Shown here one piece after another: positions 39,549 to 44,805 of a stretch of 64,000 nt of DNA. The notes below the pieces were generated by a model. The model worked only from the letters and a program-made list of their open reading frames with translations. It did not search any database and had not been told where the DNA came from. The position numbers and the translations under genes were made by a program. Numbering within the stretch: position 1 is the first letter of the stretch; every line of letters begins with the position of its first letter. This DNA comes from Rhynchopus sp. YZ270_cl-10 (taxonomy: Eukaryota), in contig OZ037836.1 of the NCBI GenBank assembly GCA_964035575.1, positions 682,001-746,000 on the forward strand. The letters run 5' to 3'.

Positions 39549-41216
39549 CGTGTGGTGGGGCAGGGTTTGTCTTCCTGCAGCCCTGTTTCCTGTTTCCTGT
39601 TTGTTGTGGTGTGGAGAATTCATTAGACAAACAGAAATGCAATCAGAAGGAAAACAAAAAGGTAAAGCAACCTTTGTTCCAATCACCCACGCCAATACTA
39701 TCAGGCCTACCAGGCCTGCTGGTGCTTAACTTCTCAAATCAGGCGGGATGACGTGTATTCACCAGAGTATGGCCGGATCCAATACTGAGCCAGGGTGGAA
39801 AACATGTGAACGGGTTGTTCGTGCCTTATCATTCTTCAACACAAAGAGGAAGTCTAAGGTTCCTGGAGCTGAACAGAAAAGAACGGTTCACGAGGTCGAA
39901 GTGACCAGGATCATGATGGTTTGGAGGCTCAAAAGCATCGCAGAAGTTAATGGAAGAAAAAGGGTAATGAGACTGCATAGGAGAGCTTCATATTGAAAAA
40001 AAAGGGTGGTAAAAAGGTGGGGATTCTGTCTCTTTTTTTAGCTAACACTCCTTTGTGGAAACAAGTATTTCAACCTATGCAAAATCAAGCATTGATAGCA
40101 GAGGAAGAGGGGATCAATAAAAATGATCCCATCTTTCTTTTGCAGTATGTTTTGCAAAACGTAAAAAGAAAAAGTAAATGCTTCATGCACAAAGTTGAAA
40201 CTTCAGTAGACTGGTTTCTGACATTAGCCCTGTTTCCTTTTACTTTCAATCCAGGAAACAAGAAAATAGAAAACGACTTCAGGATATGACAGTTAAATGA
40301 AAGAAGGCACTTTTCCGTCTATTGCACCGCAAAAGGTTTGTGTTTTTTCACATGATGAACGTGAGTGAGATGTGTATGTTAGTGGAAAAGCAATACGCTA
40401 AAGCGGGCACGCACCATCCGTCGTTTTCCATTTCTATTCGTCAATGCTTGATAACACACAAAAAAAAAATAAATAGGGGGGGGTCAAGGAGTTGATGATT
40501 CTGGCCAGCCCGCGCGCTCATTAAAAGGAGCCAAAGGACTATCTGTGGGTGTGGGTGGGGAAAACAAAAGGGAAAGTTGGGGTCAGGCACAAACCCTGTG
40601 TCAAAGCAAAAGAGAATGAGGGAGGGGAGGGAGGGGAGGGGAGGGGAGGGGGTGATATCTGAATTCTGTCTTTTTTCAGCCAATTGCAAACAACAACAGT
40701 GTTTCTGGTATGTCGACGGAAGCAACAGGGTTGCACCAAAAACAAAGTTGACTTGAAATACAACAGCCCGCTCGTGAACAGTGTACCTTGGTACAATGAC
40801 CGCACGGTGCGGTAGTCAGCAAAATGACAACCTAAATGACAACCTCAATGACATGTCATAATTATGACAACCCTATAGGTTGTCAGTGACAACCTAGGGG
40901 TTGTCAAATGACAACCTGAGGTTGTCAAATGACAACCTATAGGTTGTCATTTGACAACCTTATGCATGTGAAATGCCTTGCAACAGCCATTTTTATTGGA
41001 AATGTGGGAGGTTGGGGGGTTGGGAGGTTGGTGGTTACCTGTTTGATTGTTGATTGTTGAATGTCCATGCACTGTAAAAATTTATTTAAAAAAAAAGGAG
41101 GAGATGGGGGGGTGATTTCTGTTTTTGTTGATTTCATGATGATTTGGGTCCCTCACCCCCTTTGTAAAAATCCCGCCCATACACATATGCAGGGGTCAAG
41201 TGACTGACGTGCCTGA

Positions 41217-42149
41217 CTAGTGCCATTGAACACTCTCTTCGGAGTCCTCCTTGTTTGCCTCTGTGTCACTGGCCTCAGCAAGAGTCTCCTCAGGATCCTC
41301 AGGAGCCTCCTCAGGAACTTCGTCCTCCCCAAACACGGACATCCATGATGCCCCGTCCATTTTCACAGAGAGTGCGTTGGGGGCCCCCACGGGTATGTCC
41401 ACACGAGTAATTCCCACCTGCACCATCACGGAAGTCTCCCTCGTCGAATCAAGGGACAGAGTGCTGGGGACATCATACGTACCGTCGACCACCCCGATGC
41501 TGGCCCCGATGGCAAGGCGCTCCCGCTTCAACGCAAAGCTCAGCTTGTGACCCTGCAGCGTCGGGTCGGTGCAAAACACGGTGCAACCGTTTTCAATAAA
41601 AATTCGGTGCACTTTTCCACCCGGTGTCATCTTTTCCCCCATCACCGTGATGATAGGCCATACGGAAGCGCGGGGGCCTCTTTTGATGACCCCCTTGGCC
41701 GCCGCTGTCCCTGTTCCCTCGTTGACAATGGACGTGTACAAGCACGCCATGTCCATGTCCCCCAGCGACGCCCCTTCCCGAACTACAAGCGCCAGACGCT
41801 TGTACGCCTCCGTCTTCTTTGCGGCGTCCGATATCCCAGGCAACTTCCGCAGCACGAGTCCGCCAAACACAGTCTCCTTCACTGCCCCTCCGTTCCCTGA
41901 GATGCGGAGGCTGTACACACCTTTGGCAGCATCAGCCTCTGCCCTGTTCTTCGCCTGTGTGATGGTGAATTTTTTGCCAAGTTCAGCTGCCACTGAGCCA
42001 TCATTGGACTTGAAGTCCACCTTGAAACATTTCGAAATCAAGGCCCTCAGTGCAGGGTGACTTAAGGGGGTTGCACCGGCGGGGTTCTTCGCTTTGTACA
42101 CATAAACAGTACAAAAGTCGTTTGCAATCGTCGTCTGCTTGCTTGTCAT
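41217..42149 (-). CDS. Transposon accessory protein (310 aa), possible GNAT-fold acetyltransferase with acidic tail
   Basis: Intact ORF inside the TIRs. VFCTDPTLQGHKLSFALKRERLAIGASIGV resembles GNAT motif A; D/E-rich C-terminus. The ORF is solid, the function is inference. Confidence 0.7.
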   Translation of the reverse strand: MTSKQTTIANDFCTVYVYKAKNPAGATPLSHPALRALISKCFKVDFKSNDGSVAAELGKKFTITQAKNRAEADAAKGVYSLRISGNGGAVKETVFGGLVLRKLPGISDAAKKTEAYKRLALVVREGASLGDMDMACLYTSIVNEGTGTAAAKGVIKRGPRASVWPIITVMGEKMTPGGKVHRIFIENGCTVFCTDPTLQGHKLSFALKRERLAIGASIGVVDGTYDVPSTLSLDSTRETSVMVQVGITRVDIPVGAPNALSVKMDGASWMSVFGEDEVPEEAPEDPEETLAEASDTEANKEDSEESVQWH

Positions 42150-42382: not shown

Positions 42383-44239
42383 CTACTCTCCGTGCATGTT
42401 GTACATATGATTTTCTACGGCTCTCGGTGAGGAAAACACGTCCATACAAATGGGACAATGTTTCTTGGAAATATCCTCTGAGTGATTACACAAAAGATGC
42501 TGGCTAAAACCTCGCTTGGAAACATTGCGTTCGCATATGGGGCATTCCTGCCTGCATGCACAAGTAATTGAAGGGCGGTGATTTGCGTCGTAGTGACAAT
42601 AGAGCTTGTGCGCGGTATTGAAATTTGTTTGTGTTCCAAGTCTGGTACAGATGGTGCATATATAGCCTTCGCCCGCATCCTCTGATTCTGATTCTGGTTC
42701 TGGTTCTGATTTGCTTTCCACAACAGGGGGTACCCTCCATGATGGCTCCTTACACACGCAAATCTTCTTCACCCTACCCTCATCATCAGGGTTGGACAAG
42801 AATTTTTGCCCCCACCCTGTTCGGCGTTTTATGTGTTTTCCCAGTCCAGCACGTTGCAGTCGCTGCACCAAGTTAGTGCACGCGGTTTTCCAAGTCTCAT
42901 CTACTACTGTTATGCATTTGCACAGCCACAACGTATCAAACTCCCAAAGTGCGGGAAGCGCGTCCGTTAGGGGGCCCAGTGGTGACATCGGCACTCCATG
43001 TTTAGTTTCAATTTCGAATGCCAAGAAATCGCGTTCCATTGTATTTGGGGAGGTGCATGCCGTCCAACGCTTCCTCTCCCCATTGGCATGCTCGAACAGT
43101 TCGTCCGACACGGTCACTCTGTGTGCGTCTTCTTCATCGAACCAATGTTCGACTGAGTGCATGTACGTGCTTTTCGTAACCCCTGGATTCGCCCATTCAA
43201 GCAAATACACGGTAAGGTGGTAACACAGTAATGCGAACAAGTAATCTTTTGCGTATGGCCTCGACTCGTTCGGGTTTGGGTTTGGTGTGTGGAAGAACCT
43301 CACTGGTATGTCACTATACCGAAAGTAGTAAAGGCCCTGCATGGCCTGGCACAATATTAGTTTGCTCCCCTCATTTTCCTGAATGAGGCTGCGTAGGATA
43401 GTTCGTGACTGCGTGCCTGTCATATTGCCGTCCTGCTTACCAAGGATCTTTGTTTCTACGTCGCGGGCACCCGGTATGGTTTTAATGAGCAAACGCATCA
43501 CCCCCTTGGTATCATGCAGCATCGGAGTTAGCGTGTAACAAGGTTGCTCGAATCGCCCGGCAATGCTGCACTCGAATCCACAGGCGTCCATTTCTTGAAG
43601 GCTCAAGCGGGTGCAGTTGTGCAGGGCAGACAATCTGTCGTCCAGGTCGGTCGCACAGAACGCACTTCTATGTCCCCCGGGGCCGACACCTTTGAAGAGA
43701 CTTGCCAACTCGGCATGATCTCCCCCGATTTTGTAGTACAGGAGGGAAAATTCGAAGCCTCCCTTCCTGAGGATGCGCTCTTGAACGTTTGAGAGCTGTG
43801 GCAGAAAGGTAAAAACCCACCAGTCGTGGAAGGTGGATTTTTTTTTGTCAGCGACCGTCAAAAAGTTTGTCGCTTCAAGCCCGTTCGTCGCAGCAACTGC
43901 AAGCCTCTTCCGTGCAAGTTGGGACCTGAAGGCACTGTACGGTGAATACCCATCCCACGTGATGATAATGGTCGGGAAGTCACCGCCCAGTCGCAGGGGG
44001 AAATACTTCAGAAGCAAAGAGAGCGATTTCTGCACATCACCTACCTGAGCCTCTGCCTTATCCTTAAACGGCTTCTCCCGCTGCTGCAACGTCTTGTACG
44101 CTAGGCCCATTGACGCCCCGGTCTCAGCTTTCACCAATTTTCCGATCTCTTCGCAGTCACGCATCGACAGTCCTAGCTGGACTCTGTTGCGACCTATGAT
44201 GTTCCCCACCACCCGCACTGTTTCATGATCAATTCCCAT
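42383..44239 (-). CDS. DDE transposase of the Transib/RAG1/CMC group with three C-terminal C2H2 zinc fingers (618 aa)
   Basis: IITWDG (D96), GGDH (D174), xAFC (degenerate CxxC), PMLH, YMHSVEH (HxxxH), SDELFEHANGERKR (E383). Fingers CTIC..HYDANH, CPIC..HLLCNH, CPIC..HMYNMH. Confidence 0.88.
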   Translation of the reverse strand: MGIDHETVRVVGNIIGRNRVQLGLSMRDCEEIGKLVKAETGASMGLAYKTLQQREKPFKDKAEAQVGDVQKSLSLLLKYFPLRLGGDFPTIIITWDGYSPYSAFRSQLARKRLAVAATNGLEATNFLTVADKKKSTFHDWWVFTFLPQLSNVQERILRKGGFEFSLLYYKIGGDHAELASLFKGVGPGGHRSAFCATDLDDRLSALHNCTRLSLQEMDACGFECSIAGRFEQPCYTLTPMLHDTKGVMRLLIKTIPGARDVETKILGKQDGNMTGTQSRTILRSLIQENEGSKLILCQAMQGLYYFRYSDIPVRFFHTPNPNPNESRPYAKDYLFALLCYHLTVYLLEWANPGVTKSTYMHSVEHWFDEEDAHRVTVSDELFEHANGERKRWTACTSPNTMERDFLAFEIETKHGVPMSPLGPLTDALPALWEFDTLWLCKCITVVDETWKTACTNLVQRLQRAGLGKHIKRRTGWGQKFLSNPDDEGRVKKICVCKEPSWRVPPVVESKSEPEPESESEDAGEGYICTICTRLGTQTNFNTAHKLYCHYDANHRPSITCACRQECPICERNVSKRGFSQHLLCNHSEDISKKHCPICMDVFSSPRAVENHMYNMHGE

Positions 44240-44805
44240 TATTTTTTTTTTTTTTTTGTCCTGTCATGGATGTCCGTGTTTGGGGAGGATGAAGTTCCTG
44301 AGGAGGCTCTTGCTGAGGCCAGTGACACAGAGGCAACCAAAGAGGACTCCGAAGAGAGTGTTCAATGGCACTAGTCAGACACGTCAGTCACTTGACTCCT
44401 GCATATGTGTATGGGCGGGATTTTTACAAAGGGGGTGAGGGACCCAAATCATCATGAAATCAACAAAAACAGAAATCACCCCCCCATCTCCTCCTTTTTT
44501 TTTAAATAAATTTTTACAGTGCAGAGACAGCAAACAACAATCAACAATCAAACAGGTAACCACCAACCTCCCACATTTCCAATAAAAATGGCTGTTGCAA
44601 GGCATTTCACATGCATAAGGTTGTCAAATGACAACCTATAGGTTGTCATTTGACAACCTCAGGTTGTCATTTGACAACCCCTAGGTTGTCACTGACAACC
44701 TAGGGGTTGTCTCGCACCGAGGGTTGTCCTTTGACATGTCCTTGAGGTTGTCATTTTGATGACTACCGCACCGTGCGGCTGCACCGGGGGGGGGGGGGGG
44801 GGGTA

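Follow-up and report, generated by a model that had tools for sequence, protein, structure and literature searches.

The DNA transposon clade CMCT (named for CACTA, Mirage, Chapaev and Transib) groups EnSpm/CACTA, Mirage, Chapaev, Transib and Plavaka, along with ESTA and Lanisha, and its definition includes CA..TG termini and a target-site duplication (TSD) of 2-5 bp (Kojima 2025, PMC12730594). Within it, Transib is defined by a 5-bp TSD and heptamer-spacer-nonamer ends (excerpt of PMC1131882), the protist element AanRAGL carries co-oriented RAG2L and RAG1L genes between asymmetric ends and has a 5-bp TSD (PMC9435367), and nick-and-hairpin cleavage is reported for RAG, HzTransib and BbRAGL (available text of PMC10462144). 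On the CACTA/Mirage/Chapaev (CMC) side, CACTA elements feature subterminal repeat arrays and a second open reading frame (ORF; excerpt of PMC8978399), Chapaev has an N-terminal Chapa domain while Chapaev3 duplicates TWA (excerpts of PMC4411706 and PMC3014272), CNEST has CACGG ends and a 2-bp TA TSD and is placed as sister to Chapaev and Mirage (bioRxiv 2025.05.19.654958, in the part available), and ESTA matches RAG1 by HHpred (PMC12730594). Here we analyze a 64,000-nucleotide window from Rhynchopus sp. YZ270_cl-10 (assembly GCA_964035575.1, contig OZ037836.1, positions 682,001 to 746,000, forward strand) and, within it, a 3973-bp element at 40803-44775. We consider it probable that this is an intact, multi-copy and recently active cut-and-paste transposon of a diplonemid, with a transposase of predicted RAG1/Transib fold, and that it represents an unnamed lineage of its own in the CMCT clade.

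Boundaries, insertion site and copies of the element

The element starts with CACGGTG and finishes with CACCGTG, presenting CACGGTG at each end. It is bounded by terminal inverted repeats (TIRs) of 546 bp on the left (40803-41348, plus strand) and 512 bp on the right (44264-44775, minus strand), which are identical at 481 of 493 aligned positions and further differ by indels of 16 and 21 bp, and it encloses two open, co-oriented reading frames on the minus strand: ORF1 (42383-44239), a 618-aa transposase, and, downstream of it, ORF2 (41217-42149), which encodes a 310-aa protein. Sequence comparison bears out the size, ends, repeats and two intact genes proposed in an earlier note on this DNA, which had overlooked that the left TIR takes in the final 44 codons of ORF2. 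The inner 132 bp of that repeat are the 3' end of the gene, and the right TIR, which sits immediately upstream of the transposase start, repeats the ORF2 tail in inverted form, minus 21 bp that are deleted there. Both ends further carry subterminal arrays of the motif TGACAACC, predicted to be transposase-binding sites: 11 exact copies on the left (40825-40959), mostly in alternating orientation and with a period of ~21-22 bp, and nine on the right (44619-44753). Of 21 exact matches in the whole window, 20 fall within 160 bases of one or other end of the element; shuffled windows hold 3.75 on average and none of 100 reaches 21.

The insertion interrupts a very high-copy host repeat (40744-40802), which resumes at 44776-44803 and, after a foldback insertion, again at ~45996 (to 46120), with a paralogue at 46426-46617. 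Its summed contig depth in run X1 is 177,357 versus 51 in the adjacent bin, depth not being copy number. Nine of 19 public sequencing runs carry the stretch or part of it, seven of them with at least half of its words, and one is possibly the source; contigs were mapped onto the stretch from four runs (X1, X4, X5 and X6) representing three samples, X4 and X5 being one sample. In these runs contigs begin at 40802-40803 (precisely 40803 in X1 and X5) and stop at 44775-44776 (precisely 44775 in X1, X5 and X6), and left-type and right-type terminal contigs occur separately in all four. Separate contigs breaking at the exact ends rule out an assembly artefact, the circumstance that the earlier note had named as a refutation. 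The whole element is spanned by no contig, and both ORFs occur together on single contigs of 3293 (X4) and 2971 (X5) bases; in run X8 (share 0.24), no match was found on the right end.

The same contigs reveal the state of the repeat before insertion. Directly after the CG at 40801-40802, the host repeat continues with GCTG in 36 X1 contigs and 35 X6 contigs, such that the empty repeat equals the right flank minus one CG and the insertion therefore generated a 2-bp duplication, with CG copies at 40801-40802 and 44776-44777. Among TSD lengths of 1-8 bp only 2 bp fits, and none fits when the ends are extended by 1-3 bases, in agreement with the CG duplication first noted. Two alternatives were rejected: a blunt insertion whose true ends would be CCG/CGG, as the contig breaks fall at 40803 and 44775 and CCG is retained in the empty repeat, and CG as a fixed target, as other flanks begin with TA, CA and CG. 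Six rows of loose sequence extend past the right end: five start with a pyrimidine-purine step (TA, CA, CA, CG and TG) and the sixth is a mixed consensus starting with GG; the TG row is probably the end of a diverged relative. Another insertion flank in X1 resembles the same host-repeat position, a weak hint of target preference.

The family is young and multi-copy. Of the 19 members of the ORF1 cluster 15 are listed, all of them 98.5-100% identical to protein P0009, and it is this near-identity of copies that marks the family as young; P0009 itself (618 aa, on seven contigs) is the same as the window's ORF1 by eye. In X1 and X6 the interior exceeds the unique flank in contig depth by a factor of ~20-45, depth again not being equivalent to copy number. 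In the 14-member ORF2 cluster, nine of 12 distinct longest-contig sizes are shared with the ORF1 cluster. Two side observations concern variant copies. Some carry right-TIR variants in the ORF2 tail at 41250-41302 (protein P0110 and run X4; N299T and, in X4, the 21-bp deletion), a pattern that suggests gene conversion between the TIRs, or assembly mixing. A 622-base contig in X1 and X6 matches 44736-44775 with five differences in 40 bases, an unrelated interior and low depth; it probably comes from a different family or a miniature derivative whose termini are similar.

The transposase and its predicted fold

ORF1 is predicted to adopt the RAG1/Transib fold of DDE transposases, RAG1 being the enzyme that cuts antibody genes. 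Its residues 1-503 were modeled with AlphaFold2 (AF2) from a 58-row family alignment (pLDDT 94.6, pTM 0.92), and a single-sequence AF2 model (pLDDT 35.8) was set aside. Foldseek returned 45 matches to the core model at E ≤0.001 (best 1.8e-6); the 34 listed comprise 32 RAG1 structures, one HzTransib and one BbRAG1L, with TM-scores of 0.39-0.50 and identities of 10-13%. By VIA-align the top match is RAG1 (Z 17.4, root-mean-square deviation 4.4 over 390 residues, 13% identity, model residues 6-417 against RAG1 459-1001), followed by HzTransib (15.4, 361 residues), BbRAG1L (14.5), the P-element transposase (14.2), ISCth4 (9.7) and Hermes (7.6), and an unbiased search of 48,161 chains again ranks RAG1 first (16.0), ahead of BbRAG1L (14.2), the P element (13.7) and apo HzTransib (11.4). 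A viral structure library yielded no match to the model at E ≤0.001. Structure prediction and Foldseek, the very check proposed at the outset, therefore agree with a complete DDE transposon of this fold. RAG1, BbRAG1L and HzTransib are the only CMCT-clade members among the solved-structure matches; no CMC-side transposase is among them, which does not exclude those families, and a RAG1 structure match is to be expected for any clade member because ESTA, too, matches RAG1 by HHpred.

Residue conservation, counted over the aligned rows of the family alignment, points to a putative catalytic triad. D96 (codon 43952-43954, minus strand), kept in 32 of 33 rows, lies on strand 90-98; D174 (43718-43720, minus), kept in 33 of 36, follows directly on strand 168-172; and E383 (43091-43093, minus), kept in 33 of 34, is found on helix 379-395. 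D379 and E380 are near invariant and as conserved as E383, which we take to be the catalytic glutamate on the E-x2-N register of RAG1 E962. M-L-H242 is kept in 34 of 37 rows, and the H(3-4)H motif that precedes the catalytic Glu takes the form H361-x3-H365 (31 of 35 and 35 of 36 rows, respectively). D96, D174, E383 and the two histidine motifs stand where they had been read from the letters; in the cysteine motif the first Cys is absent. The zinc site is degenerate: C195 is kept in 34 of 36 rows, and H190 (29 of 37 rows) is a possible substitute for the missing ligand, while C-x2-C is intact in the subclade of P0046, P0049, P0051 and P0053.

Outside the catalytic core the protein departs from RAG1. 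Model residues 1-9 align to RAG1 451-461 and the RAG1 core begins at 384 (available text of PMC10462144), so that a nonamer-binding domain has no place; residues 1-89 are helical and include a single Cys. Beyond residue 420 a domain with conserved C440, C494 and C496 is followed by an acidic linker and three C2H2-like zinc fingers, residues 420-503 having been barely probed by the fold searches. The fingers (42392-42664, minus strand; residues ~526-616), also anticipated by the earlier note, are present by pattern, and their Pfam matches (zf-Di19, E 1.4e-4; zf-C2H2_4, E 6.4e-4) both fall below the curated cut-offs. Among 23 family proteins, three fingers are found in 12, one in five and none in five, with one unclear. 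The C-terminal modules of P0035, P0039 and P0042-P0045 illustrate this variation, with three C2H2 fingers, one, none, or a knuckle; the last, in P0035, reads C-x2-C-x4-H-x4-C and is close to the CCGHC tail of RAG1L.

Relatives and placement in the CMCT clade

A word-seeded search found eight clusters. With a core profile, HMMER picked out 56 proteins at E ≤0.001 from the full set of 1.84 billion representatives, and 32 of these reached 1e-30. A protein search with a deeper alignment (7998 candidates scored) gave 12 proteins, all inside the family. Organism names are attached to six of 27 transposase clusters: Rhynchopus euleeides to three, Lacrimia lanifica to two and Diplonema papillatum to one, the last with DIPPA_24690 and DIPPA_18572, two hypothetical proteins. 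Both Rhynchopus and Lacrimia belong to the diplonemids. Every organism-named homologue is thus a diplonemid, although the range may be wider, the others being ENA, Logan, JGI, NCBI and EukProt records. In a midpoint-rooted tree of 27 family proteins, built with neither outgroup nor fragments, there are several deep subfamilies, and the window protein falls in a supported group with R. euleeides proteins. Core-alignment searches of metagenome, viral and prokaryote contigs gave no locus, nor did a subclade alignment against viral contigs; one metagenome contig was matched (L001, 1026 bp), too short for element ends. Ten viral loci with a 16-base terminal pattern were dismissed as chance, none extending past 18 bases.

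These searches also failed to supply a family name, in keeping with the earlier suggestion that the element is possibly undescribed. No Pfam transposase family matched ORF1 or eight family members, and searches of PDB sequences with one protein and three profiles returned only zinc-finger or chance matches and no RAG1 or Transib chain. ESM Atlas features place RAG1 clusters level with cnidarian and other clusters (0.93), and do not discriminate between placements of the family. The literature searched held no diplonemid transposon paper with RAG1; Repbase, most subscription journals and preprint supplements, which lay outside its coverage, could hold the family. What was found on DNA transposons of Euglenozoa concerns Merlin (PMC8101967). 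TATE, MULE and Helitron are named in the available part of the genome paper on D. papillatum (PMC10161547), in whose seven supplementary files Transib, CACTA, EnSpm and RAG1 do not occur and both DIPPA genes appear as hypothetical.

Compared with the CMCT clade at large, the element has an RNase H fold DDE core with the RAG1/Transib-type insertion (predicted), H-x3-H, CA..TG ends and a TSD within 2-5 bp; it differs by the Ser that its subfamily has in place of the first Cys of C-x2-C, three C-terminal C2H2 fingers, 500-bp TIRs and no sequence-level match to named lineages. With RAG1 and the RAG-like elements (mouse and zebrafish RAG1, BbRAG1L [PDB 6b40] and AanRAGL) it shares the best structural match, a CAC-GTG heptamer-like end and two genes, which in AanRAGL, likewise a protist element, are also co-oriented. 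Unlike them it shows 12-15% identity, no space for either nonamer-binding domain or N-terminal region, neither nonamer nor 12/23 asymmetry, a TSD of 2 bp instead of 5 bp, and a partner gene that lies downstream and gives no RAG2 or kelch signal, while the CCGHC tail of RAG1L (CX2CX3GHX4C) is absent from ORF1, whose C terminus consists of C2H2 fingers. Transib (HzTransib, PDB 6pqx/6pqn) resembles it in fold, in its 3-4 kb size, in CAC ends and in the GC-rich target at the present site; the element's 2-bp TSD, second gene, C2H2 fingers and subterminal arrays set it apart, as does the lack of a heptamer-23-nonamer end.

A deep-branching, true Transib or RAG-like element with an altered TSD length, and with ORF2 as a very diverged RAG2-like partner or functional stand-in, would accommodate the structural ranking, led by RAG1 and HzTransib over ~390 residues, a heptamer one base off CACAGTG, the co-oriented genes of protist AanRAGL (PMC9435367), Transib TSDs of 3 bp or TA as described in the available preprint text, the P0035 knuckle near the RAG1L tail, and an acidic ORF2 tail comparable to the acidic hinge of RAG2 (excerpt of PMC10462144). 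It nevertheless appears very unlikely to us: the 12-15% identity to RAG1 and HzTransib compares with a reported 26% average across RAG1L and Transib (PMC9435367), no HMM match to RAG1 or Transib chains was obtained in the PDB, and the search for a nonamer of the V(D)J recombination signal sequence (RSS) reached at best 5 of 9 positions at either end with spacers of 11-13 and 22-24, in ends that are symmetric and with a protein that lacks the nonamer-binding domain. ORF2, moreover, has no match in Pfam, NCBIfam, PDB or ESM Atlas and no detectable internal repeat, 75 of 200 shuffles scoring as high. The initial emphasis on RSS-heptamer-like ends was overstated, such ends not being specific to RAG: CA..TG is clade-wide, CACGG with a 2-bp TSD occurs in CNEST, and neither nonamer nor 12/23 asymmetry accompanies the heptamer here.

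The DNA anatomy instead invites comparison with the CMC side. CNEST of Cryptococcus neoformans, as described, shares the CACGG termini and 2-bp TSD, yet its TSD is TA only, its length ~7.2 kb and its TIRs 33 bp; ESTA of rust fungi, also compared by description, shares CAC termini, a 2-bp TSD and a RAG1-like profile match, yet is TA-only and ~7-14 kb long; the searches made gave no sequence link to either. Plant CACTA/EnSpm elements offer a parallel for subterminal arrays of direct and inverted motifs and for a transposase with a second ORF, whereas the element has CACGG rather than CACTA, a 2-bp rather than 3-bp TSD and no Pfam transposase match. It is unlike Chapaev and Chapaev3 in having no Chapa zinc-finger domain at the ORF1 N terminus and no TWA TSD. 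These resemblances to CNEST, to ESTA (CAC ends, TA TSD, RAG1 match by HHpred) and to the arrays and two genes of CACTA are what a highly diverged member of a named CMC-side lineage (CNEST/ESTA, or EnSpm in the broad sense of Repbase) would show, in which case only host range and architecture would be new. We regard this as unlikely, given that the TSD is not TA-specific (CG here, CA and TA flanks elsewhere), that both CNEST and ESTA are much larger, that no named CMC protein, or indeed any named known transposase, is among the 56 profile matches (27 clusters looked up), and that 18 family members gave no Pfam transposase match at E ≤10 among the 25 of 41 families listed.

By the features tested, then, the element is neither Transib nor RAG-like. 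Its transposase would work like the Transib/RAG type, to judge from the model, and its DNA anatomy leans to the CMC side, meeting no named group in full. We thus return to a new, diplonemid-centered lineage of the known CMC-Transib clade as the probable placement, and likely as a side branch rather than a RAG ancestor. It is important to note the points that weigh against it. A lineage of its own is suggested by sequence searches that were unsuccessful. The 2-bp TSD comes from one insertion, whose empty sites are paralogous rather than allelic and agree with the 30-letter consensus at 0.49-0.58; the host-repeat paralogue inside the window failed to separate TSD lengths (scores 182-185), and TSD length is labile even within Transib, with 3 bp and TA reported (bioRxiv 2026.08.26.747230, in the part available). 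The lead of RAG1 over the P-element transposase is modest (Z 17.4 versus 14.2, and 16.0 versus 13.7), and the triad of D96, D174 and E383 is assigned from secondary-structure position and conservation. The C-x2-C of the clade is S192-x2-C195 here, position 192 being Ser in 28 of 37 rows and Cys in only five, and 11 of the 23 family proteins do not have three fingers, some perhaps through truncation. Finger binding to the motif and trans-splicing, both taken up below, are inferred, and the role of ORF2 is predicted.

More speculatively, the family could be a deep sister of Transib and RAG1 kept in Euglenozoa, preserving a pre-RAG state in which C-terminal C2H2 fingers read tandem subterminal motifs in place of a nonamer, an acid-tailed, non-kelch ORF2 regulates the transposase in the way RAG2 came to do later, and the long TIR supplies the trans-splicing signal of the transposase, a scenario we find quite unlikely. 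On the favored placement, as a side branch, the element adds an intact, young, multi-copy lineage to the clade in which RAG1 originated, in a eukaryotic group with no such record in the literature searched. Its 12-15% identity to RAG1 and 2-bp footprint make it a natural test of which traits are ancestral, be it hairpin chemistry, the 5-bp stagger, nonamer reading or RAG2 dependence, and an endogenous, apparently active cut-and-paste element could be developed into a tool for insertions in diplonemids. Surprise is tempered by the many lineages of the clade that already combine CAC ends with 2-bp TSDs, and by the RAG-like element already known in a protist.

Partner gene, proposed transposition cycle and surroundings

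ORF2 is longer than expected by chance, since none of 500 shuffles of 41001-42382 contains an ORF of at least 310 aa. Several stretches of its product look like amphipathic helices, and the C terminus is an acidic tail, with D/E making up 44% of the last 36 aa; the word-seeded search finds homologues only within its own family. A RAG2-like propeller is unlikely from the sequence; ORF2 is likely an accessory or regulatory protein, comparable to the second gene of CACTA, rather than a RAG2 homologue. We also entertain, tentatively and as somewhat less than an even prospect, that ORF2 is cargo captured from the host or a foreign source, the long inner repeats a by-product of inverted duplication during gap repair, and the functional unit the transposase with ~160-bp ends; save for the role of ORF2, this is compatible with a diplonemid transposon lineage as favored above. 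The inner repeat does duplicate the ORF2 coding tail, and ORF2 has no homologues beyond one family whereas the transposase has relatives at 46-52% identity. On the other hand, ORF2 is intact and near-identical in most of the 14 cluster members and co-travels with ORF1, the homologue search requires shared 5-residue words and may miss fast-evolving partners, and two relatives lie on 3.8-3.9 kb contigs with room for a second gene.

With ORF2 as an accessory protein, we propose the following cycle. Both element genes face the same way as the neighboring host genes and may be expressed by polycistronic transcription followed by trans-splicing at pyrimidine-tract/AG sites. The intergenic spacer (42150-42382, minus strand) contains (TTTG)n and polypyrimidine tracts and then AG at -78, -46 and -29 from the ORF2 start, a candidate trans-splice acceptor. 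Upstream of ORF1, an AG at -23 follows a stretch of at most 77% pyrimidines that is the antisense of the acidic ORF2 codons in the right TIR; a candidate acceptor before the transposase would lie within this TIR and could account for its unusual length. Three zinc fingers cover approximately nine bases, and those of ORF1 would bind the TGACAACC arrays at both ends. D96, D174 and E383, judging from the fold, would make a nick at the CAC terminus and free the element, probably via a flank hairpin as in RAG and HzTransib. Insertion would then produce the 2-bp duplication seen at the present site, the differing flanks of other copies hinting at a pyrimidine-purine preference.

The remainder of the window offers several further observations. 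Among ORFs of at least 200 aa, the six on the minus strand all run in one direction and the 11 on the plus strand all lie opposite a single 8024-aa ORF (891-24965, minus strand), which has internal repeats and whose first 2988 residues have no Pfam match above cut-off. A 478-aa gene region is duplicated at 92% identity (28377-29937 versus 38128-39678), a tandem array of ~54-bp period occupies 34488-35841, and a 264-bp direct duplication lies at 49248-49782. An isolated, partly deleted 3' fragment of 28S rRNA (46577-47150) and a 5S rRNA-like sequence (39674-39780) resemble the scattered rRNA fragments described in the available text on Diplonema papillatum (PMC10161547); the 28S fragment and the orientation of the ORFs are in keeping with a diplonemid host. 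Finally, two 1.19-kb near-perfect foldback palindromes (44804-45995 and 52077-53270), ~68% alike and with TAGGGGG/CCCCTA-type ends, have the appearance of non-autonomous members of a different family; the first sits in the host repeat that also received the transposon, 28 bp away from it.

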